DNA of 64,000 bases from an uncultured Spirochaetota bacterium (GTDB taxonomy: Bacteria > Spirochaetota > Spirochaetia > SZUA-6 > Fen-1364), in NCBI GenBank assembly GCA_963820525.1, contig CAWGAA010000001.1, forward strand, positions 1,088,001 through 1,152,000. The letters run 5' to 3'. Positions 7,125-33,566 of this stretch are shown piece by piece. Under the pieces are notes generated by a model that did not search any database, was not told where the DNA came from, and was given only the letters and a program-made list of their open reading frames with translations. Within the stretch, counting starts at the first letter, position 1. The number at the start of each line of letters is the position of its first letter. Both the position numbers and the translations under genes were made by a program.

Positions 7125-7197
7125 TCCCCTGTAGCTCAGCTGGTAGAGCGGGTGGCTGTTAACCACTAGGTCGGCGGTTCGAGTCCGTCCGGGGGAG
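7125..7197 (+). tRNA. tRNA-Asn (anticodon GTT at 7158-7160); CCA not encoded
   Basis: Cloverleaf: acceptor TCCCCTG/CGGGGGA, D-arm GCTC-AGCTGGTA-GAGC, anticodon arm GGTGG-CTGTTAA-CCACT, T-arm GGCGG-TTCGAGT-CCGTC. Confidence 0.97.
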
Positions 7198-7211
7198 CTG
7201 AGACCGAGTCG

Positions 7212-7251
7212 AACAGGCCCTTTTATGGTTAACACTATAGGAGGGCCTGTT
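7212..7251 (+). terminator. 18-bp hairpin downstream of the tRNA (part of the reusable 'R1' att arm)
   Basis: AACAGGCCCTTTTATGGT-TAAC-ACTATAGGAGGGCCTGTT with G-U pairs; T-rich tail. Confidence 0.7.
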
Positions 7252-7414: not shown

Positions 7415-7640
7415 AGGCTATGTTCTTACTAGACTACTGACTCGTTTGTCGACGAATATTCAAAAGGGGTCAGTTTCTCCTTGTTCTTTTGCTCATGGCG
7501 GCTGGCTCGAAGCTCGTCAATCTGGGCGGGCGACTCCTGTGTTCCGCCGCCGGTCTTGAAAACCTCAGCGCTTCGCGATAAAGATAGCGGGGAGATGAGA
7601 AATTCGGGCCAAGAGCCACGACGCACCTGAAAAGCAGAGC

Positions 7641-10118
7641 ATGACAGACAGACAAGAGTTGCAGAACGAGATCTCACGCGAGGATACCCGGCTCACCGTC
7701 CTCAAAGCCGAAGTGGAGAAAAGCAACACCCGCTTAAACGCGCTTCGTGAGCAGCTCGCCGCTGAGCCGCCCCTGCAGATCGCCGTCCCCAGGCTGCCGG
7801 CTCCAGAGACAACACCGACACCGATGACGAATGCGGCCAAGGTCGCCCTTTTCCGGTCGCTTTTCCGAGGCCGCGAAGACGTCTTCCCGCGACGCTGGGA
7901 GAACGCGAAGAATGGCAAATCCGGCTACTCACCGGCCTGCACTAACGAGTGGGAGTACGGATTGTGCGCGAAGAAGAAGGGGCTCAACGCCAGCCGGCGT
8001 GTTCACTGCTGTGAGTGCCCCAGCCAGGCATTCATCCCGGTTTCAGACGAGGAGATCGCCAAGCACCTGCGAGGGGACCAGATCATGGGGGTCTATCCCC
8101 TCCTGCCAGACGATACGTGCTGGTTCCTCGCAGCCGATTTCGACAAGAAAACGTGGCATGATGATGTCATGGCGTTTATCGAGACCTGCGACACACACGG
8201 TATCCCCGTGGCGATCGAGCGATCCCGCTCGGGCAACGGCGCGCACGCCTGGTTTTTCTTCGCATCGCCTGTGCCCGCGGCAACAGCACGCAAGCTCGGC
8301 TGCTTTCTCATCACCGAGACCATGGCACATCGGCACCAGCTCTCGATGGAATCGTACGATCGCCTATTCCCCAACCAGGACACCATGCCGAAGGGCGGAT
8401 TCGGCAATCTGATCGCACTCCCTTTCCAACGTCATTCGCGCGACGCGGGCAACACCGTGTTAGTCGATGCCGTCCGAAAGCCCTGGTCCGATCAGTGGAC
8501 CTTTCTCGCCGGCATCAAGCGCCTCGATGCGACCTTCATCCACGCCCTCGCCGAAGAGGCCGCGAGTCGCGGGCAGGTGATCGGCGTCCGTGTAAGCGAG
8601 ACACTCGACGATGACGATCTGACGCCCTGGACCCGACCGCCTTCCGGACGCCCGAGAAAGGTCGTGATCACCGCGCCCCTACCTCCTAAGGTGAAGGCGG
8701 TCCTGAGCCAACGCTTGTTTATCGAGAAGGCCGGTTTGCCGTCGCCCCTGCTCAACGAGCTCAAACGCCTTGCTGCATTCCAGAATCCAGAGTTCTACAG
8801 GAAGCAGAGCATGCGCCTCTCAACGGTGCTCACGCCCAGGGTGATCGCGTGTGCCGAGGACTCCCCCGAACACATCACTCTTCCGCGCGGCTGTTTGCCC
8901 GATGCCGAGGCTTTGCTTCGCCAGAATGGAGTCGCGATAGATGTCAAGGACAAGCGTGAAGGCGGGACGCGGTCGACTTCGCATTCCAGGGCACCCTCAC
9001 CCCACTCCAGGAGTTTGCCGTGAAGGCGCTCCTCGAACATGATACCGGCGTGTGTGTCGCGCCGCCGGGCGTCGGCAAGACCGTAGTCGGCGCGTACCTA
9101 ATAGCAGCCCGGAAGACTAGCACGCTCATCCTCGTCTATCGCAAGCCGCTCCTCGACCAGTGGATCGGCCAACTGTCAATGTTCCTCGGCATCGGGCCCA
9201 AGGACATCGGCCGGATCGGCGCGGGGAAATCTAAACCCAATGGCCGGCTCGATGTGGCCATGGTCCAGAGCCTCGCGCGAAAAGGGAAGGTCGCAGATCT
9301 CGTCGCAGGCTACGGCCAGGTAATCGGTAATCCAAGACGAGGTCCATCATGCACCGTGTGTGAGCTTCGAGCGTGTTCTGGCCGAGGTGAAGGCCAGGTA
9401 CCTCGTCGGCCTCACCGCGACTCCACAGCGCCGAGACGGGCTCCATCCCATTCTCCACATGCAGCTCGGTCCGATCCGGTTTACGGCAGACGCGAAGAGC
9501 CAGACAGCCCAACGGCCGTTCGACCACAAGCTCGTCGTCAGAGAGACGGGGTTCTCACCCACTGGCCACACGGCCGATGCTGGAATCCAGGAGCTCTACG
9601 CGGCACTCGCCGCCGACAAGAAGCGCAACGACCTCATCTTCGACGACGTGCTGTGTGCTCTCGAGGAGAAGCGCTCGCCCATCCTGCTCACGGAACGGCG
9701 GGAGCATTTGGAACACTTCGCCGACCGGCTTCAACGCTTCACTTGACATCTTATCGTGCTCCACGGCGGCATGAAAGACAAGGAGCGACGTGAGGTTCTC
9801 TTGAAGCTCGCCGGGATCCCCGACGGAGAGGAGAGGCTTATCATCGCGACCGGCAGGTACATCGGCGAAGGCTTCGACGACGCCCGGCTCGACACCCTGT
9901 TTCTCGCGTTGCCTGTCTCATGGAAGGGGACGCTCGTCCAGTACACCGGCCGGCTGCATCGCCTGCATGCGGGCAAGACCGAGGTTCGGATCTACGACTA
10001 CGTTGACAGTGCGGTCCGGATGTTGTTGAAGATGTTCGAGAAGCGGCTTCGCGGCTACAGGGCGATCGGATACGTCCGTGACGAGGAGGTGCTTCGAAAC
10101 CCCGAGGATAGGACATGA
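7641..10118 (+). pseudogene. AEP-primase-like (TOTE-conflict type) domain fused to a superfamily II DExH helicase; disrupted
   Basis: CWFLAADFD, IERSRSGNGAHAW, FGNLIALP; Walker A APPGVGKT; DEVHH; GLTATP.RRDG; GEGFD..RLDTL; frameshift ~8968, 7-bp duplication 9319-9332, in-frame TGA 9744-9746. Confidence 0.85.
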
Positions 10119-12984: not shown

Positions 12985-13233
12985 TTACTTCTTGCTCGAC
13001 CTTGCTCCAGCGACCCGGTATTCGCGGTAGTCGAGACCGAGGGGGAAACGGCCGGCTTGGTTGTACCAGTTACCGGCAGAGCGTTTCAAGTCAGTAATCC
13101 CGGCGATGTTCATCTCTGGCAGGTGCGGGCCGTGGTAGAACTGCTCTCTTCGGGCGTTCCGCCGAATGAGGACAAATCGCGGCAGCGGCAAAGCGTCCTC
13201 GATCAGGCTTATGAATGAGGGCATTGATCGTTT
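12985..13233 (-). pseudogene. 'LIED' att-adjacent ORF remnant, copy 1 (putative HTH/recombinase-domain protein)
   Basis: FISLIEDALPLP...GPHLPEMNIA...GLDYREYRV aligns with 32456-32770. Confidence 0.6.
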
Positions 13234-13263
13234 GGTCGCTGGTTCGAGTCCGTCCGGGGGAGC
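13234..13263 (+). repeat. tRNA-Asn 3'-half direct repeat (att junction 2)
   Basis: GGTCGCTGGTTCGAGTCCGTCCGGGGGAGC, 28/30 identical to 7169-7198. Confidence 0.95.
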
Positions 13264-13275
13264 AAAGGAAAGGTC

Positions 13276-13315
13276 GAGCTGGCTCTCTCTGGCGTTCGCC
13301 ATGGAGAGCCGGCTC
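13276..13315 (+). terminator. R1-type hairpin
   Basis: GAGCTGGCTCTC..TGGCG-TT-CGCCA..GAGAGCCGGCTC. Confidence 0.65.
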
Positions 13316-13959: not shown

Positions 13960-14257
13960 CTGCCCATGAGGGCGCTTGACCGCCGAGTAGGGCAATCGCG
14001 GCTGCCAAGGGGATCTGCAACGCCGAAAACGCCACTCCGAGAACATGGTCGCTGCGAGGTTGATCCACGGCCGCTTTTACTTTGAGCCCGTCGTTATCAG
14101 GAATGCCTTCACACGGCGCACAAGCCGCAAGCGCAAGGTTGTAGAGGAGCGACCTTGAGCGACATGAATCCGTCCTTTGCCGATTTCGGTGCTTGCCGTA
14201 TGAGAAATGGACGGTATCCTCGATCATTTGCAGCAAATGACCGCGTTACCAACCCGT
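13960..14257 (-). pseudogene. 'LIED' ORF remnant, copy 2 (strongly decayed)
   Basis: QMIEDTVHF and GIPDNDG; TCCTCGATCA DNA motif at a similar distance from the repeat. Confidence 0.4.
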
Positions 14258-14285
14258 TCGGCGGTTTGAGTCCGTCCGGGGGAGC
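14258..14285 (+). repeat. tRNA-Asn 3'-half direct repeat (att junction 3)
   Basis: TCGGCGGTTTGAGTCCGTCCGGGGGAGC, 27/28 to 7171-7198, followed by the R1-like GAGTCGAACTGG. Confidence 0.95.
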
Positions 14286-14385
14286 GAAGATTGAGTCGAA
14301 CTGGTTTCCCCTGGCTAACACGTCGCAGCTTGCAGGGGGCGTCCCCAAGGCGCCCAGGAGGATCCGGCTGAAGAACTGAGAGAGG

Positions 14386-14637
14386 CTACCCCGTGCTCTT
14401 CAGCTCCTCTCTGAGGATGCGGCGAAGGGTTTCCACGTCCAGCGGACGCGCTGACCTTCCCAGATACTCACGGAGGGCATCGTTTATCATGGTCTGGTAT
14501 CCCCGGCCGGCGGCATCCGCACGGTTGCGGAATTCCTCCAGAATCTCATCATCAAGGTAGATGCTGATCCTGCTCTTCCCTTTCTGAGGGATGACCGCCC
14601 CCCGCTTGGCCTTGCTGAAGTCATATTCCTTCCTCAT
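14386..14637 (-). CDS. brnA: BrnA antitoxin family protein
   Basis: MRKEYDFSKAKRG...RISIYLDDEILEEFR...GYQTMINDALR. Confidence 0.9.
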   Translation of the reverse strand: MRKEYDFSKAKRGAVIPQKGKSRISIYLDDEILEEFRNRADAAGRGYQTMINDALREYLGRSARPLDVETLRRILREELKSTG

Positions 14638-14893
14638 AGTTTTTCCTCTCACTCCTCGTCGCGGTCCTGGCCGAAATCAGCCGGATTGTCTGACCGCGAT
14701 AGGAGTAGACAATGACAACAATCCGGCCTGATGAATCCGTCCCCATGGACACGAACCGTTGCTCGCCGCGAGCCTGGGAATCCTCCCTTGTGAGGGCAAA
14801 GGGATCAAAGAGCACCGCCTCGGCGTCGGAGAAGCGAATCCCATGCTTCCTTTGATTCGACGCAGCTTTCCGGGGATCCCACACAACTTGCAT
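14621..14893 (-). CDS. brnT: BrnT family toxin
   Basis: WDPRKAASNQRKHGIRFSDA...GEQRF...IRLISARTATRSER. Confidence 0.9.
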   Translation of the reverse strand: MQVVWDPRKAASNQRKHGIRFSDAEAVLFDPFALTREDSQARGEQRFVSMGTDSSGRIVVIVYSYRGQTIRLISARTATRSERKNYEEGI

Positions 14894-15027
14894 ACTCAGA
14901 GCATATACATACATTATACATATATCAAGTGCCTGACGGCAATCGGAATACGGAGGGACGCAGGCAAAGTCGTATGGGGCCGCGAAAGCGAAATCATCGC
15001 TGAGCGGGTAGACGCTGGAGCTTAGAC

Positions 15028-15168
15028 TCAAGGATTTCCGAATGCGATGGCTGCGAGTGAAAGGCTGTACAGATGCGGCCTTGGAAAGCACAAGCTTTGT
15101 ATTTGCATGCTCCGGCTCCCTTTGTGCATGAAGCATAGCAAGTCCTCGATCAGCGGGATGGCCGACCG
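15028..15168 (-). pseudogene. 'LIED' ORF remnant, copy 3
   Basis: AIPLIEDLL...RPHLYSLSLA, in frame with APPDGLEP across the repeat. Confidence 0.5.
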
Positions 15169-15210
15169 TGTTAACGTCCAGGTCGCTGGTTCGAGTCCGT
15201 CCGGGGGAGC
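15169..15210 (+). repeat. tRNA-Asn 3'-half direct repeat from the anticodon loop (att junction 4)
   Basis: TGTTAACGTCCAGGTCGCTGGTTCGAGTCCGTCCGGGGGAGC, 37/42 to 7157-7198. Confidence 0.95.
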
Positions 15211-15220
15211 AGAGTTGGAC

Positions 15221-15257
15221 AGGCAGTCGGCACAGAGTCGACTGCCTTTTCTGTTTC
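15221..15257 (+). terminator. Rho-independent terminator; its antisense encodes a recombinase C-terminal tail ('R2' arm)
   Basis: AGGCAGTCGGC-ACAGA-GTCGACTGCCT then TTTCTGTTTC; antisense reads AQETEKAVDSVPTACPTLLPRTD. Confidence 0.75.
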
Positions 15258-15274
15258 TTGGGCGCAGCGGCAGG

Positions 15275-21773: not shown

Positions 21774-21972
21774 ATTAGCCGTAACTGTTTGTCATATCTA
21801 CAGTTAGGCGCTTAGACTCGCCTCTCTATCTCTTGATACTTCCCCCATAAACGATCTGTCGCAAAGGTGTTTCTATTGAAGCTTTCCATTTGATACACTG
21901 CTGTCGTACCGCGTCCGGATGCATGCCTTGAAAAATCTATCCTGAGAAATCACAGATCGAGGAGGATTGAAT

Positions 21973-23139
21973 ATGTCGGAAATCGAACAGCTGGCCGTTC
22001 ACACCGGCACTGTCGATGTGCCCCCCGCGGAAGTCGGTTACGACGAAGAAGCGATCAGGAGACTGGATGCCCACCTGCAAGGGCTTGTCCGGGAGAACAA
22101 GCTGCAGGGCGCCAGCTACCTTCTTGCCCGATACGGAAAGGTTTTCGCCTGCAAGTCGATGGGCAGGCTGACTCACCACCAGGGCAGCTCCGACCTTCTG
22201 ACGGATTCACTGTGGTGCATTGCATCGATCACCAAGCTCTTCACCGCCATGGCGATCATGACGCTGGTCGAATCCGGCAGGCTGTATCTCGGCAAGCCGA
22301 TCGCCGAAATCATCCCGGAGTTTGGCACTGATACGCACAGGAAAATCACCATCTTTCATCTGTTGACCCATACCGCGGGCCTCATGCCGGATCCGGGCTA
22401 TTTCTTGGAACCCTATCCCCGTGGCTGGTGGGTGGCGCTCATGGCTCAGGAGGCGCCAGGATATCCGGAAGACCAGAAGATCGGCTGGATAAAGGCAGCC
22501 CTTTCGGGCGCCATGCACTGCAAGCCAGGCGAGAAATGGGGCTACTGCTCGGCTGGATTCTTGATCCTGGGCGAGATCATAAGCCGAGTTACAGATATGC
22601 CGTGCGAACAGTACATCGACGATCGTATCATAAAGCCTCTTGGTCTGAAGAATACTTTTTTCGATGTTCCACATGATTTGCAGGAGAATGTCTGCTTCAC
22701 CAACGACTGGGCCGAGAGAGAGTTGAAGAAGAGGGAAAAGGGAGCGGGACGGCCTCCGGGAACGGCAGGGGGTCTTTACTCCTCGCTCGCCGACTTGAAC
22801 ACGTTCGCACAAATGACCCTGAAGAACGGTCTCTCCAACGGTACCCGCATCGTGAGCCGGAAAACCATTGAATACATGACCAAGAATCACCTGCGGGGTG
22901 TCCCTGCCTTCCATTGGGGGGCGGAGATCAAGGATCACAGACACGGCCTCGGATTCGCGATTTACCAGACGGATCTCGTATCGCCTAATACCTATATCCA
23001 TGAAGGGGCGGGTCGCAGCGCACTTCAAATCGATCCCGATGAGGAGCTGGTCTCAGTGATCAATGTTCCTTCGACGGTGGACTGGCTGCCCGAGTCGATC
23101 ATCGGGACGCATTCGGTGATTTGGTCCGGCCTCCTTTGA
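21973..23139 (+). CDS. Serine hydrolase, beta-lactamase-related family
   Basis: SxxK (ASITK), HLLTHTAGL, PGEKWGYC, HEG; GGAGG RBS. Confidence 0.9.
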   Translation: MSEIEQLAVHTGTVDVPPAEVGYDEEAIRRLDAHLQGLVRENKLQGASYLLARYGKVFACKSMGRLTHHQGSSDLLTDSLWCIASITKLFTAMAIMTLVESGRLYLGKPIAEIIPEFGTDTHRKITIFHLLTHTAGLMPDPGYFLEPYPRGWWVALMAQEAPGYPEDQKIGWIKAALSGAMHCKPGEKWGYCSAGFLILGEIISRVTDMPCEQYIDDRIIKPLGLKNTFFDVPHDLQENVCFTNDWAERELKKREKGAGRPPGTAGGLYSSLADLNTFAQMTLKNGLSNGTRIVSRKTIEYMTKNHLRGVPAFHWGAEIKDHRHGLGFAIYQTDLVSPNTYIHEGAGRSALQIDPDEELVSVINVPSTVDWLPESIIGTHSVIWSGLL

Positions 23140-23164
23140 CAGGGACCTCGCGAGGAGCTGGCCC

Positions 23165-23599
23165 ATGGAGGCTCATGACCGCACGAATGGTCTTGGGAGC
23201 CAGGGTCCTCAGGGCAGTCGCCTTCGTCACGTACAAGGAGTGAGCGGCATACAGGAGCTTCAACTTCTCCAATATCTGTTGCAAGAACCGATGGCTTTTA
23301 GGTGGCAGACAGACGTATGGACTACCAAACGGATTGCAGATTCGATTGAAAGGAAGTTCGCCATAAGCTATCACTACGCGCATGTCAGCCGCATCATGCA
23401 TGCCTTGGAATGGAGTCCACAAAAGCCTGAACAGCGCGCTCTACAACGCAACGAGGCAGTCATCCAAGAGTGGAAGACTACCAACTGGAAGAGGATAAAA
23501 AAAACGCCACGCGGCTGGGCGCCCACCTTATTTTTATCGATGAATTGGGTTTCATGCAGCCCTACGATGAAAAGAGGTGCAATGCCGAAATCTCAATGA
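23165..23599 (+). mobile_element. IS630-family transposase remnant
   Basis: WTTKRIA..I..KF.ISYH..HVSRIM..L.WSPQKP..RA.QRNE; a shift at the A8 run 23497-23504 gives LIFIDELGF; truncated. Confidence 0.8.
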
Positions 23600-23657
23600 A
23601 CGTTGCTTGACATAGTGGGCGTGTTCCCAGAAGCGCACTCTCCTTTTCGGTGAGTAC

Positions 23658-24185
23658 ATGAACGAGCACCTCCTGCTCCTGCTGCCCCACCGCCAGTTCG
23701 TTTGGACCATACCTAAGATCTTACGATGCTATCTCAGGCACGACCGTAGCTTATATGCCGACATCGGCAGGCTCATATTCGAAATTCTGTCCTCCTATTT
23801 CAGTCAGGCTTCGGGCAGGCCGATCCAGGGAGCCATGGTCAGTAGCCATCAGACATTCGGACAATTCGCCGTTTGGAACCCTCACTGGCACACCATCGGG
23901 TTGGAAGGCGGATTCGACCGCTGCGATCGGTTCTTTTTCATTCCCCTGGGCGCCAACGAAGCTCTTGTGGAAATCTGGCGATGCAAGGTGGTTGCGTTGT
24001 TCCTCGATAAAGGCCTGCTGAATCCGAGTTTCGCCCAAACTCTGCTGAAGTGGCGCCACTCGGGCTTCTCAATCGAGAGCAGCACACGCATCTACGACGA
24101 GGATGCGCGCAGGGCATTGAGCCAGTACATCGTGCGCGCCCCGTTGTCGCTGACAATGCTCGAATGGGATCAGGAGCAGGACACC
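23658..24185 (+). mobile_element. IS91-family (HUH) transposase internal fragment
   Basis: LPHRQFVWTIPK.LR, QTFG...WNPHWH, WRHSGFSI, YIVRAPLSL. Confidence 0.8.
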
Positions 24186-24197
24186 GTTCGGGGGAGC
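24184..24197 (+). repeat. att junction 5 (tRNA 3'-end-like core)
   Basis: CCGTTCGGGGGAGC followed by AGGATCGGACAGGCAG, similar to the arm at 15211; hairpin 24206-24233 with T-run. Confidence 0.8.
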
Positions 24198-24513
24198 AGG
24201 ATCGGACAGGCAGTTGGGTTACCATCTGCCTGTTTTTTATATCCTGAGCGTAGTTGCGCGCCGCCTGTGCCATTCGGTGAATGATGTAGAACGGAGGCTT
24301 GAAGGCAAGGGCCACTTGGTCGTCCTTGAGCGCCGAGCCTGGCATGATGAAGTGCAGGAGAGCCGCCCGTTAGGCTTGGCCCCGCCTTCGGTAGAACACT
24401 TAGGCGTTCCAGGCGATCTCCAGGAGCCGGATCCCCTGCTCGATGTAGTTCTGGTCCGCCTTCTCGTGCCGCTCGATCTGAGCGCGGATTTAGGCCTGTT
24501 CCTCGCGCCACTG
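24186..24513 (-). pseudogene. C-terminal remnant of a large serine recombinase reading into the att core
   Basis: QWREEQA*IRAQIERHEKADQNYIEQGIRLLEIA.NA*VFY...RAALLHFI.PGS.LKD...AFKPPF then, after a shift, TACPILLPRT; three in-frame TAA. Confidence 0.7.
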
Positions 24514-24714
24514 AAAGAGGTTTCGGCGGTTGGCGGCCGCGCGGGAAGCGGGGATCAAGTACCTCATCCGCTTCGACCGGCTTCGGGCGACGCCGCTTCC
24601 GTTGCCGTAAAACCGTCTCCGAAAAAGCGGGACAGTCCGTCCCGGGCCGTCCTCGAGCCGTTTCCCTTGACGCGCTTCTCGGATGTTGTACCATTGAAGT
24701 ACGAGGTAGAACAA

Positions 24715-26636
24715 ATGAAAAGACGCGCGTTTTCCCTGGTATTGCTGGTAGCGTTAGGCTGGTTCGGGTGGTCGGAAAAACTGGTCATCCGGCCGGCCCA
24801 GGATCTCGGCAAGGGGTTCATAATGGGCGCCGACGTTTCGATGCTCGATCAGATCGAATCCCTCGGCGGCGCCTATTACGACGAGAATGGAAAGCGGGGC
24901 GATTGCCTCGCCATCCTGAAGGCCGGCGGCGTCAACTGGATCCGCTTGAGGATATGGAACGATCCCGTGAACAAGGAGGACGTTATCGAGGGCGACCGCG
25001 TCCTCTCGAAGGCGGGCGACCCGGCGGGCGGGGGGAACGACGACCTCGCCGCGTTTATACGCGTCGCCAAACGCGCGAAGAAACTCGGCCTCAAGGTATT
25101 GGCCGATTTCCACTACAGCGATTTCTGGGCCGATCCGGGCAAGCAATATACCCCCTACGCGTGGAAGGGCCTGGGCCTCGAGGAGCTCAAGAAGGAACTC
25201 TATCGCTATACCGACGCGAGCCTGAAAGCCATGCGCGCCGCGGGCGCGATGCCGGACATGGTTCAAGTCGGGAACGAGGTGGACGGCGGCTTCCTCTGGC
25301 CGGTCGGCAAGATATGGCAATCGGGAACCGACGAGCTGGTAGGCGGTGAGAGCGCTTTCATCGCCCTTCTAAAAGAGGCGGTCCGCGCCGTTCGCAACAA
25401 TGATCCGGCCAAGGGCAATCCCTCGAAACGGATCAAGGTAATGATCCACGTATCGAACGGCGGGGACAACGCGCTGTTCCGGAAAGTATTCGATCCCATA
25501 ATCGAAGGAGGCGTCGACTTCGACGTCATCGGCCTTTCCTTCTATCCGTATTGGCATGGCAAGCTCTCCGATCTTGCGGCGAACATGGCTAACCTCGCGA
25601 CCCGTTACGGGAAGGAGATGATCGTCGCGGAGACGGGGTACGCCTGGACCCTCGAACCTGGAGATTCCCTGGAAAACAGCTTCGGGCCGGGATCCGACAA
25701 GCTCGGCGGCTATAGGGCGACGGTCCAAGGCCAGGCGATTGCTTTATGCGATATCATCAGAACCGTCGCGGGCGCGCCCGCCTCCAAGGGCATCGGCATC
25801 TTCTACTGGGAACCGGATTGGATACCGGTCGCTGGGGCCGGCTGGAGGACGGGCGACGGTAGCTCATGGGAAAACCAGGCGCTGTTCGACTATACGGGGA
25901 AGGCCTTGCCCTCGATCAAGACGTTTAAGCTCGTCGCGGCGAAGGGGGAAATTCCCGATTTGAGGGTCATCGAAGTCGAGGGCGTCAAAACGAAGATCCC
26001 GGCCGGCGGAGTCCTCGCGCTGCCTCCCAAGGTACTGGCTACCTATTCGGATGATTCCTACCGAACCACGCAGGTGAATTGGAGCAAGCCCGATCCCGCC
26101 GCATTGAAAAACTCGGGACCCTCGAGGTAAAAGGCTCGGTGTGGGGATACAAGGGAGACGTGATCGCGACAGTCGAAATAGTCGCCGATGTCAACTTGAT
26201 ACCAGACTCGAGCTTCGAGTCTGGAGTTCTCGATCCCGGATGGGAGCTCTCCGGGGAGGGGGTCAAAGCCGCGCTGGTCGAGAGGAATCCGGGCAACGCG
26301 CACAGCGGCGAATACTCGTTCAAGTACTGGCTCGACAAGCCCTTTACGTTCACCCTCGTCCGGCGTTTCTCCGGGCTGAAGGACGGGACCTATACGCTTC
26401 GGGTCTGGGCCGCGGGAGGCGGAGGGGAGAAGGATTATTACCTATTCGCGCGGGACTACGGCGGTCCCGAACTGACTGCTAAAATCGTCAACACCGGTTG
26501 GCAGAAATGGAAGCTCTACGAGATCAAGGGCATACCCGTCAGCGGAGGCGTTTGCGTTATCGGGCTGTCGATGGACGGCAATCCGGGCAACTGGGGCAAC
26601 GCGGACGATATCGAGTTCACGCGCGACTCCGATTGA
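24715..26636 (+). CDS. GH53 endo-beta-1,4-galactanase with C-terminal Ig-like/CBM modules; single frameshift at the A-run ~26107
   Basis: FIMGADVS, NWIRLRIWNDP, DFHYSDFWADPGKQ, VQVGNE, SFYPYWHG, VAETGY, GIFYWEP, WENQALFD. Confidence 0.9.
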
Positions 26637-27971: not shown

Positions 27972-28084
27972 GTAGAAAGCGTTCCATTCTAATGTATTTG
28001 CCTTAGCTCCCCCTATTGGACGAGCTTCGAACCTACTGCTACGAGCATCAGATCGAGAGATCCCCGCGCTACTGGCGGTTGTGA
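27972..28084 (-). repeat. att junction 6, inverted (core GCTCCCCC at 28006-28013), R3 arm joined to the 'LPLLDELRTYCYE' arm
   Basis: R3 arm is an imperfect inverted copy of 28203-28236; the other arm matches 29995-30051 plus 31605-31626. Confidence 0.8.
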
Positions 28085-29986: not shown

Positions 29987-30139
29987 TGAAACGATCAGAT
30001 GGCCAGGAGCGTGGGTATCTCATCGATTTTATTCTCATAGCAGTAAGTTCTGATATGAAGTGACCTGTCAAGCCTGCCCTCTTTTTTCCTCTTATCTGTT
30101 CCTCCTTGGGCGGGGCATTTCGAGCAAAGGTCGAAGCGG

Positions 30140-30300
30140 CGTTCGACGACGGCTGATCACTCTGATATTCGCGGATCGAGCGTCACTGCCCGCCTGCATA
30201 ATCGTGATCCGTCGGGAGCTGCCTCTGACTAAGAACGCGAGTCCGGTCGATATCGACCTGTCGCATAGAACCTATCGAGGATTCTCCTTTCCGTGTGCCG
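30140..30300 (-). ncRNA. Putative bridge/seek RNA of the IS110 element
   Basis: Non-coding end downstream of the transposase, with two stem-flanked loops holding target-matching (TAGGTTCTA, CTTAG) and donor-matching (ATTATG, ATATCAG) segments. Confidence 0.7.
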
Positions 30301-30362
30301 TGCGACCTTTGCCCGCAATACCCCACCATCATAGCTTGCTTACCTCGGCGCGGCGCACCCTT

Positions 30363-31511
30363 CTACGCCGCGCCTTTTGCCTTCTGCGCCTGAGCGCTTT
30401 CCACGCTCACCCCGATGGCCCAGATGAATCCCAGCATCTCGCGTGCCACCGCAGTAACCACTTCCTGTCTTGATTTGCCTTTGCCCAGCAGGTGCATATA
30501 GCGGCTATGAAGGCGGTGACGTGCCTTCGATGCAACCTCCTGCACTTCCGCACTCAGGCCTTCCTGGCGCTTGCGCATGGCGAGGCTGAGCACTGGTTTG
30601 TAGCGTTGGGACCACGCCGCTTCCACTATGACGCGTCGCAAATGGGCGTTGCCGGTCTTGGTAATCCCTCCGCGGCGAGTCTTGCCGCCGCTGGAATGCT
30701 CGCTGGATACCACCCCGCTGTATCCCATGAGCTGACGCGGGTGCTCAAAGCGCGACAGCGTGCCCAATTCGGCCACGATCGTCACCGCCCCCACCTTCGC
30801 CACTCCCCGAAGCGCCTGCAGCGCTTGGATGAGTTCACGCATGCTCTCCGGCGCCTGCTCGACTGCCTCGTCGATCGCCTTCTCAAGCCGGACAATTCGT
30901 ACGCTAGTATGCTCCACTTCGTTGAGGTAGTCCTCCAAGGTCACCTGCTGGGGCCGCTGATCGAAGCTCACCTCCCGTTTGATCCAGTCGAGGTACTGTT
31001 GCGTCCACGACCGCATTGTCTGCGGCGGGCGTTTGCCATGCCGCAGAAGGTATTTCCCAAGTCGATGGCGAGCTCGGAGTTGGTCTTGCTTTGACGCCTC
31101 CCGCGCACGCACCAGGTCTCGCAGTGCCTCGTGTGCCGCATCGGGCACCCACACCGGCGTTAGCTCCCCAGCCCGAAAGCTGCAAGCCAACCGCTCGGCA
31201 TCCCGCCTGTCGGTCTTCACCCGATCCCCTGCCTTCGTTGGCACCAGTGTCGGCGCTATCACCACACAGGGGATCCCCAGCTTCGTCAGTTGCCAGTACA
31301 GCGTGTAGCCCGTCGGTCCGGCCTCGTAGCAAGCCGCCCACGCGCCCCCCTCATTGAGTTTCTTCACGAGCTTTCGAACGCTCTCCTCCCGATTGGGGAT
31401 GCTCCCGAGCCTGCGGACTGCCTCATCCTTTTCCGCCATCGCCGCCACGATGGTCTCCGCATGGGCATCGAGCCCTACAAAACGCCGCACTGCTGTGATA
31501 GCCTTCTTCAT
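30363..31511 (-). CDS. IS110-family DEDD transposase/recombinase
   Basis: FVGLDAH, YEAGPTG, KTDRRDA, SEHSSG..RRGGITKTGN. Confidence 0.95.
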   Translation of the reverse strand: MKKAITAVRRFVGLDAHAETIVAAMAEKDEAVRRLGSIPNREESVRKLVKKLNEGGAWAACYEAGPTGYTLYWQLTKLGIPCVVIAPTLVPTKAGDRVKTDRRDAERLACSFRAGELTPVWVPDAAHEALRDLVRAREASKQDQLRARHRLGKYLLRHGKRPPQTMRSWTQQYLDWIKREVSFDQRPQQVTLEDYLNEVEHTSVRIVRLEKAIDEAVEQAPESMRELIQALQALRGVAKVGAVTIVAELGTLSRFEHPRQLMGYSGVVSSEHSSGGKTRRGGITKTGNAHLRRVIVEAAWSQRYKPVLSLAMRKRQEGLSAEVQEVASKARHRLHSRYMHLLGKGKSRQEVVTAVAREMLGFIWAIGVSVESAQAQKAKGAA

Positions 31512-31604
31512 GACCGCCTCCTTCGTATGTAGCTCTGCGCTACTTTCACCCGATCGCAGCGCAATCTACGATGCTACGATCGGGGCGGTCACTTCATTAT
31601 GACT

Positions 31605-31678
31605 AAGCTCGTCCAATAGGGGGAGCTGAGACAGAGTCGAACTGGCTCTCTTTGGCTAAGACCATGGGGAGCCGGTTC
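31605..31678 (+). repeat. att junction 9 (core 31619-31626) with R1 arm and hairpin 31639-31678
   Basis: CCAATAGGGGGAGCTGAGACAGAGTCGAACTGGCTCTC...GGGAGCCGGTTC. Confidence 0.85.
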
Positions 31679-32455: not shown

Positions 32456-32770
32456 TCAAACCGCAGGCTTTGTGGTGCTGGATAGCCAAATCGCGTCCTG
32501 TTCAATCCTGCTCTTCACAACCCAGTGTTCGCCGTAGTCGTAGCCGCAGAGCATTTGGCTGGGAAGCTCGTGCCCGTTTCCCCCATGTGGGATGCCAAAC
32601 TCGTTCAATGCCGCTATCACAACTGAACAGCCCACAGCGGCTTTGCGGGCGATGTTCAGCGCGGGCAGGTGTGGACCGCAGATGGGCTGTTCCGTGTCGA
32701 TATGATCCCGAAGGCGGAATAATGACGGCAGTTGCAAAGTGTCCTCGATTAGGCGTATGAAGGGGGGCAC
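32456..32770 (-). pseudogene. 'LIED' ORF remnant, copy 6 (best preserved)
   Basis: FIRLIEDTLQLP..GPHLPALNIARKAAVGCSVVIAALNEFGIP..GNGH..SQMLCGYDY..VVKSRIEQDAI; HTH-like segment then a G.DY motif. Confidence 0.6.
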
Positions 32771-32861
32771 TAACCTCCTGGTCGGCGGTTCAAGTCCGTC
32801 CGGGGGAGCTGAGACCGAGTCGAACTGGCCCTTTTATGGTTAACACCAAAGAGGGCCAGTT
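32771..32861 (+). repeat. tRNA-Asn 3'-half plus R1 arm direct repeat (att junction 10)
   Basis: 35/39 identical to 7160-7198, then near-identical to 7199-7251 with a compensatory stem change. Confidence 0.95.
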
Positions 32862-33218: not shown

Positions 33219-33446
33219 CTATTCCCAGACTTCAGCGTGCGTCAAGGTTTTGCGACCGGCCAGCGCCGCAACGCGCGCATCCGCGACGTGGACCAGCACG
33301 GCATCCTCATGGATTTCCAGAGCTTCCCGGACTAAGTCCCGTGTCACCATGGACAGGGACAATCCTCTCGCGTGAGCCATTCTCTCGATCAGGGAATAAA
33401 TCGGTTTCTCCAGAGCAACGTTGATGCGCGGATTCTTGGTAGGCAT
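33219..33446 (-). CDS. RHH antitoxin (paralogue of 13685-13912)
   Basis: 61/75 aa identical by manual count; promoter TTGCCA-17-TACACT at 33465-33493. Confidence 0.85.
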   Translation of the reverse strand: MPTKNPRINVALEKPIYSLIERMAHARGLSLSMVTRDLVREALEIHEDAVLVHVADARVAALAGRKTLTHAEVWE

Positions 33447-33507
33447 TACGTACCTCCAACTCCGAGTGTAACACTTATGAGACACCCTGGCAAGAGCCCG
33501 GCAAGGC

Positions 33508-33566
33508 TTAAACGGCCAGGAGAGCGGGTATCTCTTCGATCCTGTGCTCGTAGCAGTAAGAGTTCG
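33508..33566 (-). repeat. Orphan 'YCYE' att arm lacking its core
   Basis: YCYEHRIEEIPALLAV*; 33514-33560 is 39/47 identical to 30001-30047. Confidence 0.8.

Follow-up and report, generated by a model that had tools for sequence, protein, structure and literature searches.

In a 64,000-nucleotide stretch of contig CAWGAA010000001.1 from an uncultured Spirochaetota bacterium, hereafter the window, positions 24190-24537 of the minus strand carry a degraded remnant of a large serine recombinase (LSR) gene, amounting to approximately the last 125 codons at its 3' end. The 5' end is truncated, with approximately the first 390 codons missing, and the remaining reading frame (..NRRNLFQWREEQA, stop, IRAQIERHEKADQNYIEQGIRLLEIAWNA, stop, VFYRRRGQA, stop, RAALLHFIMPGSALKDDQVALAFKPPFYIIHRMAQAARNYAQDIK..) is interrupted by three in-frame TAA stops; the remnant is therefore a dead relic. 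Additionally, the A-run at 24233-24238 (T6 on the plus strand) is A6 in the window and A7 in the relatives. Whereas the relatives continue ..QDIKKQAxxxxTACPxLLP.., the window arrives at the frame of TACPILLPRT (24214-24185, minus strand) only via a one-base shift in this run, and the recombinase-homologous frame and the TACPILLPRT frame are offset by one base. A first-pass annotation of the region had described a large-serine-recombinase-like remnant ending in TACPILLPRT; the homology was recovered, with the one-base difference in the A-run and the three TAA stops as corrections.

For the homology search, window positions 24181-24567 (minus strand) were translated with X at the three TAA stops. 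Read in this manner, the remnant matches stop-free frames of 240-604 amino acids (aa), all of one family, in 7 of the 60 relatives' genomes, and the six strongest matches (E <= 2.7e-27) show 63-74% identity over stretches of up to 103 residues. The full-length homologue P0003 matches window positions 24537-24163 (E 1e-29), the remnant being 58% identical to its residues 392-514 and retaining only the end of the coiled coil onward. Intact relatives are 530-540 aa long, and the domains Resolvase (PF00239), Recombinase (PF07508) and Zn_ribbon_recom (PF13408) were found in the three intact homologues tested (L003, L005 and L007). The N-terminal Resolvase catalytic domain (PF00239) is not present in the window remnant, because the latter is cut down to approximately the last 125 codons. 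The homology to stop-free frames and the LSR domains of the intact homologues indicate that the remnant, as had been proposed, is the C-terminal part of a large serine recombinase, and that it is a real but dead 3' fragment of such a gene. It is visible as such only once the correct frame is read through its stops; the raw minus-strand open reading frame (ORF) 24173-24784 gives no Pfam match and has a low GC3 (0.45). A long plus-strand ORF over the same region was rejected as an artefact upstream of the GH53 gene. All three TAA stops (24359-24489, minus strand) are preceded by GCC (Ala), and the homologues have Q, Q/R and E at the three stop positions; the GCC before every stop is probably a coincidence.

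The types of attachment (att) site were determined by aligning every copy of the tRNA-Asn 3' end in this genome with the relatives' loci. All four types, attB, attP, attL and attR, are present, and they show a clean exchange of arms at a common 7-bp crossover core, GGGGGAG, which is the 3' end of tRNA-Asn. A single tRNA-Asn(GTT) gene, the only intact copy in the genome, occupies window positions 7125-7198 (plus strand), and the unoccupied attB at this true tRNA-Asn (7125-7221, plus strand) consists of the B arm ggttcgagtccgtcc, the core at 7191-7197 and the B' arm ctgagaccgagtcgaac. The attP type was found in eight relatives' loci, with the P and P' arms aagctcgtccaata / core / caggatcggacaggcag. 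The flagged remnant ends in a junction of the attL type (24184-24196, plus strand), composed of the residual tRNA-arm bases CCGTTC and the core at 24190-24196, the minus strand of which encodes ..LLPRT. In a relative (G014), an attL and an attR lie in the same orientation on one contig and delimit a complete element of approximately 16.3 kb, whose LSR gene adjoins attL.

As read from the sequences, GTCC..GGAC in attP and TTCGAGTC..GAGTCGAA in attB form dyads about the same centre, located between the fifth G and the A of the core. Such a common centre is as expected for a serine-recombinase site with a central GA dinucleotide, which would lie in the acceptor stem of the tRNA. A shifted zinc-ribbon motif was also considered, in which 'RT' and 'SN' would both derive from a GAAC motif displaced by 5 bp between the P and B arms; the P arm fits this and the P' arm does not, and the 5-bp rule was not found in PMC5499577, so the derivation is at most a lead.

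The alignment of the four site types at GGGGGAG confirms that the recombinase ORF runs across the att core, which lies approximately 24 codons ahead of the stop and encodes the L-P of ..ACPxLLP.. on the LSR strand. No stop precedes the core, and the stop is found either in the tRNA-like target (integrated form) or in the other end of the element (attP form). Here, 'attP form' denotes an unrecombined P-core-P' junction, nothing more, and implies no circular state. Since the LSR frame crosses its own att site, the gene has one tail before integration and another after it, and the DNA state would decide which isoform can be made.

The tails were surveyed in 54 database homologues and 94 related loci, which were scanned for the recombinase C-terminal motif (60 had it). 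As a result, 28 unique attP-form tails were obtained, ending in ..LLP-LLDELRTYCYEHKIEEIPALLAV and a stop (LLDELRT[YF]CYEHKIEEIPALLAV or variants), and these are contiguous with LSR ORFs, mostly of full length; the YCYE peptide, which the first-pass annotation had joined to a recombinase across the core, is indeed part of such ORFs. The survey also gave 29 unique tRNA-antisense tails (LPR[PTL]DSNQRPSG and a stop), the integrated form ending in ..LLP-RTDSNQRPSG; 15 of the 29 have exactly 12 residues, with the stop supplied by the anticodon loop. As anticipated, integrated copies end in the tRNA-antisense peptide, which in protein P0020 is exactly LPRTDSNRRPSG. The fetched loci contained 42 unique complete tails, namely 15 in attP form with no tRNA nearby, 22 tRNA-antisense tails and 5 of other kinds. 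Among the tRNA-antisense tails, 10 overlap an intact tRNA (8 Asn, 2 Gln), 3 run off the contig and 9 abut degenerate tRNA pieces.

The same arrangement extends to distant members of the family in Geobacter, Micavibrio and other alphaproteobacteria, in which the LSR ORFs end within tRNA-Asn or tRNA-Gln. A profile search against 1.84 billion representatives returned 6044 matches at E <= 1e-30. Among the best 150 cluster representatives of these 6044, approximately 70 end in tRNA-antisense-like tails according to a loose pattern that made at least one false call, and approximately 13 have free tails, picked by eye.

The P' arm also carries an intrinsic terminator, on the strand opposite to the ORF and just upstream of the core in the reading direction of the gene. 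A terminator-like hairpin (24206-24233) followed by a T6 run occupies positions 24206-24238 on the tRNA-sense strand (plus), with -24.3 kcal/mol for the 55-nt stretch 24191-24245, and its antisense encodes the recombinase motif KKQA..TACP. A simple terminator scan missed it because of a stem mismatch; the same scan found the terminator in the P' arm of a second attL-type relic (15221-15247, with the following stretch to 15257, plus strand). All 36 sequences folded (34 loci and the 2 window copies) have a GC-rich hairpin with a perfect stem run of approximately 8-16 bp, followed by T4-T8, and the inner stems vary between loci with pairing retained. Because the terminator is embedded antisense in the recombinase ORF, hairpin and T-run dictate the protein motif KKQA..ACP. 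After integration, the terminator lies approximately 9 nt past the core and roughly 8 nt past the 3' end of the tRNA, a position from which this element-borne hairpin would serve as a new terminator for the tRNA.

Many attP-form loci have a pseudo-attB within 3-10 nt of the tail's stop, made up of a B'-like arm, CTCCCCC and degenerate tRNA antisense; next comes a small ORF that combines a helix-turn-helix (HTH) with the first half of a Recombinase domain (PF07508 positions 2-50), as in L032 (2002-2475), L033 (1579-2013) and L071 (628-957). Integration would split this gene from the LSR gene. The product of this ORF may act as an accessory protein or as a directionality factor, and tandem insertions might use the pseudo-attB as a landing pad. 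The downstream cargo in other attP-form loci is defence-like (Peptidase_U49, SIR2_2 and PRiA4_ORF3).

Selection on the attP-form tail was evaluated from synonymous (pS) and nonsynonymous (pN) differences, calculated as tree-free pairwise sums over related sequences, and regions were compared in 15 unique attP-form loci. The distal tail, from YCYE to the end (18 codons), has a pS of 0.82 and a pN of 0.21, with variabilities of 0.22, 0.25 and 0.54 at the first, second and third codon positions, and resembles in its substitution pattern the LSR body (pS 0.63, pN 0.19; 0.23, 0.17 and 0.47). The variable linker is near neutral (pS 0.55, pN 0.49, pN/pS ~0.9; 0.43, 0.60 and 0.49). The four core codons (xLLP; pS 0.20, pN 0.26) vary little at all three positions (0.23, 0.29 and 0.19), which indicates constraint at the DNA level. 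As a control of the frame, 13 ungapped tails of 23 codons were used, in which pN/pS is 0.24 in the LSR frame versus 1.26 and 1.56 in the other sense frames. The range for these two sense frames plus two antisense ones is 1.1-2.5; the remaining antisense frame gives 0.38 and has stops in 13/13 tails, the antisense frames in general having stops in 9-13 of the 13. Judged by these substitution patterns, the attP-form tail evolves as a translated peptide under purifying selection at the protein level, in agreement with the protein-level conservation suspected in the first-pass annotation.

It could be argued that the overlap is a by-product of an att site located at the 3' end of a compact gene, that both tails are dispensable read-through and that the conservation reflects constraint on the DNA of a long attP arm. 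Part of the evidence fits: the att core and the terminator hairpin, features of the DNA or RNA, shape xLLP and KKQA..ACP, LLDELRT falls inside the expected half-site, GGAC stands at the same offset in the B and P arms as read from the sequences, and intact LSR genes persist in integrated copies without the tail. Moreover, McMurdie et al., in the available text of their work on the recombinase DsiB, doubted a functional region in the tRNA-like antisense part (PMC3146451). Nevertheless, variation in the 16-18 distal codons, which lie more than approximately 25 bp away from the centre, is concentrated at third positions (pN/pS 0.24-0.26), and the frame control runs against this explanation in that the alternative frames give 1.1-2.5, or 0.38 in the one antisense frame with stops in every tail. 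The adjoining linker is near neutral, so there is no blanket DNA constraint on the region. We therefore hold such a by-product to be improbable.

As a whole, the locus is in our judgement probably best explained as a relic of a small tRNA-Asn-targeting element moved by a DsiB-like LSR, with an integration-dependent swap of the tail. In this family, an unrecombined attP copy encodes an LSR ending in LLP-LLDELRTYCYEHKIEEIPALLAV; once attP and attB have recombined, the attL gene runs on into tRNA antisense and terminates in LLP-RTDSNQRPSG, its stop supplied by the anticodon loop, and the displaced 3' piece of the gene is left at attR. The attP-form tail would adjust the integrase that is made before integration. 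The first-pass annotation had proposed that integration swaps the tail of the recombinase, possibly as a degron switch; its observation is confirmed and its interpretation partly supported.

It is important to note that several observations weigh against this explanation. The first seven tail codons (LLDELRT) lie within approximately 25 bp of the centre, inside the att half-site, and their conservation may partly be that of a DNA binding site; the xLLP codons are likewise constrained at all three positions, and, as the sequences are related to one another, counts across them lack independence. An intact tRNA is missing from nine L-type loci that have enough flank; therefore, some tRNA-antisense tails arise at element-borne pseudo-attBs and not at a chromosomal tRNA. 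Some attP-type junctions occur in chromosomal relics, including contig C2 of this genome, and in L103 an attP and an attR lie 1.1 kb apart. Protein P0004 reads through the tail stop, several tails end in ..VARA, ..FGE or ..VRQ, and 5/28 have a charged residue among the last four. Finally, an AlphaFold2 model of the tailed full-length protein (41-sequence alignment) is mediocre, with a mean pLDDT of 68.8 and a pTM of 0.32, and in it the tail (pLDDT 47-60) shows no confident docking onto the rest of the protein.

What the tail does may be approached from its C-terminal end, which was compared in the 28 unique tails and in 3924 ORFs of at least 250 aa of this genome. A penultimate Ala is found in 14/28 tails versus 9% of the background ORFs, an A-[AVI] end in 12/28 versus 1.5%, and two final residues among AVILFG (non-polar) in 19/28 versus 15%, whereas a charged residue in the last four occurs in the five tails already mentioned and in 72% of the background. 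Known tag endings are LAA, LVA and AAV, and AA ends only 2/28 tails. The non-polar, A-[AVI]-rich C-terminus would fit the idea of a degron, and the tail may thus be an instability tag, which would make the enzyme short-lived as long as the element is unintegrated, loss of the tag on integration then giving a stable isoform. Uncharged non-polar ends are frequent also among the distant free tails, 9 of the 13 picked by eye ending non-polar, among them VAA, TAA, AAA, IAA and LVA, with LAG also among the free-tail ends. A long, variable linker of low confidence precedes the tail, as would suit an exposed tag: in the AlphaFold2 model, which has long helices at 338-434, the linker (489-515) has a pLDDT below 50 and the tail is a short helix (515-524). 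A precedent is given by the integration-dependent immunity of mycobacteriophages, as far as the available accounts describe it (PMC9934374, PMC4557955). On the other hand, the best-conserved part of the tail is internal (RTYCYE..IEEIP) and not at the extreme end, the ends vary (VARA, FGE, VRQ, IAC), and a stable integrase after integration has no obvious benefit. Charged or variant ends and the read-through in P0004 fit a strict C-terminal degron poorly. We accordingly regard the tag as a tentative proposal.

To a similar, doubtful degree the tail may instead control activity or directionality, by analogy with the IntP and IntX forms of the phage Mx8 integrase: efficient integration would be reserved for the tailed isoform, and the tRNA-antisense one would differ in specificity, for example by being competent for excision only with a directionality factor. 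According to the published description of Mx8, attP is located within int and the new 3' end changes the specificity (PMC6070905), and the same idea was raised for DsiB in the available text of McMurdie et al. (PMC3146451). Selection can reach the tail only in the attP form of the gene and is thereby tied to integration, and in several attP-form loci the small HTH and half-Recombinase gene follows directly after the tail and would be separated from the LSR gene by integration. However, the model predicts no contact between the tail and other parts of the protein, and Mx8 Int, the precedent, belongs to the tyrosine recombinases, whose mechanism differs. Two other readings, a peptide that binds some other partner and a tail that has no role at all, each appear unlikely to us.

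Should the control of activity and the instability tag operate together, a large clade of tRNA-targeting serine integrases would carry a switch of directionality and lifetime written into the state of the DNA. Encoded by the unrecombined element alone, the tailed isoform would be able to integrate it, though the non-polar A-[AVI] tag would give the protein a short life; integration would then swap the tail for the tRNA-antisense peptide, uncouple the HTH and half-Recombinase gene and put a terminator behind the tRNA. We consider this combined scheme rather unlikely as it stands; if true, it would be a layer of control independent of a separate directionality factor. Large serine integrases are prized for genome engineering, as integration proceeds in one direction only for as long as no separate directionality factor is present. 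Were the tail swap to work as a switch, the enzyme's properties would follow from whether its DNA is excised or integrated, a simple and portable principle of control, and the question left by DsiB in 2011 would be answered. For annotation, the swap means that the predicted C-termini of these integrases depend on the state of integration, and that many database proteins end in meaningless tRNA-antisense residues.

The flagged feature is an inactive relic in a mosaic of att relics and insertion sequences beside the tRNA-Asn. This genome contains no intact member of the LSR family of the remnant, only relics; every copy of the element family in it is decayed and none is active. Its single intact LSR (C3:236295-238538) was considered and is not related to the remnant's tail. 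Junctions of the attL type (B / core / P') have their cores at 15203, 24190 and C1:2132874, the B arm of the 24190 copy being cut to 6 nt, and those of the attR type (P / core / B') comprise the core at 31619 and an inverted copy at 28007. A weak tblastn match at C1:2132847 was rejected as a gene, being a tRNA-fragment/P' relic. The second attL-type relic of the window (15164-15270, plus strand) consists of a pseudo-tRNA 3' part, the core at 15203-15209 and the P' arm, with ..KAVDSVPTACPTLLPRTDSN in antisense. The attR-type junction (31605-31662, plus strand) has a P arm (antisense LPLLDEL), the core at 31619-31625 and a B'-like arm, and the inverted attR-type relic (27999-28080, plus strand) a B'-like arm, the core CTCCCCC at 28007 and the frameshifted tail LPLLDELRTYCYEHQIE/... 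A distal attP-form tail, RTYCYENKIDEIPTLLAI and a stop, is found at 29995-30051 (minus strand), followed by a degenerate pseudo-attB, and an orphan distal tail that lacks a core, YCYEHRIEEIPALLAV and a stop, at 33508-33558 (minus strand), followed by an antitoxin-like ORF of the ribbon-helix-helix (RHH) type. The peptides that the first-pass annotation had quoted from these copies were all located where it had placed them: TACPTLLPRTDSN at 15227-15198 (minus strand), LPLLDEL at 31625-31605 (minus) and 28007-28027 (plus), YCYE..LLAI with its stop at 30045-29995 (minus) and YCYE..LLAV with its stop at 33558-33508 (minus), along with TACPILLPRT; the copy at 28007-28080 is frameshifted, as it had indicated.

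A pseudo-attB with a pseudo-tRNA 3' half, core and B' arm (32771-32851, plus strand) is 91% identical to 7160-7240, with similar ones at 13225-13305 and 14247-14327. For the tRNA 3' halves at 13241, 14263 and 32787, an origin as leftovers of tyrosine-integrase elements was also considered, and rejected in that the window has no PF00589 gene. The halves are pseudo-attBs in the 5' region of the small ORF that follows the tail in attP-form loci; remnants of this small HTH and half-Recombinase ORF (ORF-X), at 32489-32824 and 12991-13209 (minus strand), explain the halves at 32787 and 13241, and the pseudo-attB 32771-32851 sits in the 5' region of the former. On contig C2, relics of the same element family lie at 200546-200714, 204493-204698 and 206836-207018. 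They include two attP-type junctions with complete tails (..AACPNLLPLLDELRTY[CY]YEHGIEEIPALLAV), inverted and approximately 6 kb apart, with an N-terminal LSR fragment between them and a pseudo-attB adjoining one of them.

The insertion sequence (IS) that the first-pass annotation had removed to join the two parts of one tail was located at 30052-31604 (minus strand). It belongs to the IS110 family (DEDD_Tnp_IS110 and Transposase_20), is single-copy in the genome and splits the P arm right after the codons LPLLDEL. A related IS (88% identity in the first 647 nt compared) occupies the same attP position in an intact LSR elsewhere (L003/L009/L025; in L009 from 2190), where it swaps the tail for SQNEVTAPIVVS and a stop. 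The shared position suggests that this IS110-family element may home to this att arm.

At the flagged remnant itself, a remnant of an IS91-like transposase (weak Y2_Tnp match in Pfam; 23616-24184, plus strand) takes the place of the remaining tRNA arm left of the core. Just upstream of it, positions 21946-23596 (plus strand) hold a gene of the PF00144 family (beta-lactamase family serine hydrolase) and a transposase-like fragment (HTH_33/HTH_32), and on the right side of the remnant a GH53 galactanase gene starts at the ATG at 24716 (plus strand). Directly downstream of the tRNA-Asn (7599-9790, plus strand) are genes for a protein with an AEP-TOTE primase domain (E 4.6e-95) and a ResIII/DEAD helicase fragment, which are cargo of a conflict system. 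A BrnT-family toxin gene (14621-15136, minus strand) and the RHH (CopG-like) antitoxin-like ORF (33222-33485, minus strand) lie among the att relics; therefore, toxin-antitoxin cargo appears to be part of these elements. The neighbourhood of the tRNA-Asn is a graveyard of such elements, with cargo of the defence and toxin-antitoxin types.

Canonical large serine integrases generally have their attP outside the int ORF and mostly target protein-coding genes, whereas members of the present family have an ORF that runs across attP and insert at a tRNA 3' end. In domain order and in the layout of the att sites, the family nevertheless resembles the canonical enzymes (phiC31, Bxb1 and A118/LI Int), which are described as having catalytic, recombinase and zinc-ribbon with coiled-coil domains and short att sites composed of P/P' and B/B' half-sites with a central dinucleotide (PMC5499577). 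No statement of an attP inside an LSR ORF was found in a literature search that included term look-ups in Durrant 2022 (PMC10083194).

Outside the serine recombinases, phage Mx8 of Myxococcus xanthus has, according to its published description, an attP within int, and integration gives a new 3' end with altered specificity and no inactivation (PMC6070905). As described there, it shares with the present family an attP inside the integrase ORF and a C-terminus that is replaced on integration, an exchange interpreted as a switch in regulation. Mx8 Int belongs to the tyrosine recombinases, whereas the present homologues are serine recombinases, and the tyrosine recombinase domain PF00589 has no match in the window. 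Tyrosine-type integrases are also those of the BPs-type mycobacteriophages. In the available accounts of their integration-dependent immunity, the repressor loses an ssrA-like tag when the phage integrates (PMC9934374, PMC4557955), and the likeness consists of an attP core inside a coding sequence and of integration into a tRNA gene that strips a C-terminal tail. In those phages, however, the split gene is that of the repressor, not of the integrase, and the function of the tag was shown by experiment.

The closest parallel is offered by McMurdie et al. (2011), in whose account the 540-aa serine recombinase gene dsiB of the Dehalococcoides ssrA islands always overlaps attL at its 3' end and has its stop codon only beyond the island (PMC3146451). 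The authors suggested that dsiB is perhaps fully functional only on the circle and considered the tRNA-like antisense part unlikely to encode a functional region (PMC3146451). Both systems have a serine recombinase of approximately 540 aa beside attL that reads outward into a tRNA-like 3' end, a likeness that refers to the published description and not to sequence. In that description, the target of DsiB is the tmRNA (ssrA) and its partner is the small serine recombinase DsiA, whereas the present family targets tRNA-Asn or tRNA-Gln and has the HTH and half-Recombinase-domain ORF as its neighbour. The available text on DsiB leaves the attP-form tail undefined and does not address selection on it, and both are treated here for the present family. 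The 3' overlap itself has thus already been reported for DsiB in 2011, and the swap of tails for the Mx8 tyrosine integrase; relative to these published descriptions, what is new is that the attP-form tail is defined and its selection measured, in a broad clade of tRNA-targeting serine integrases with an embedded terminator.

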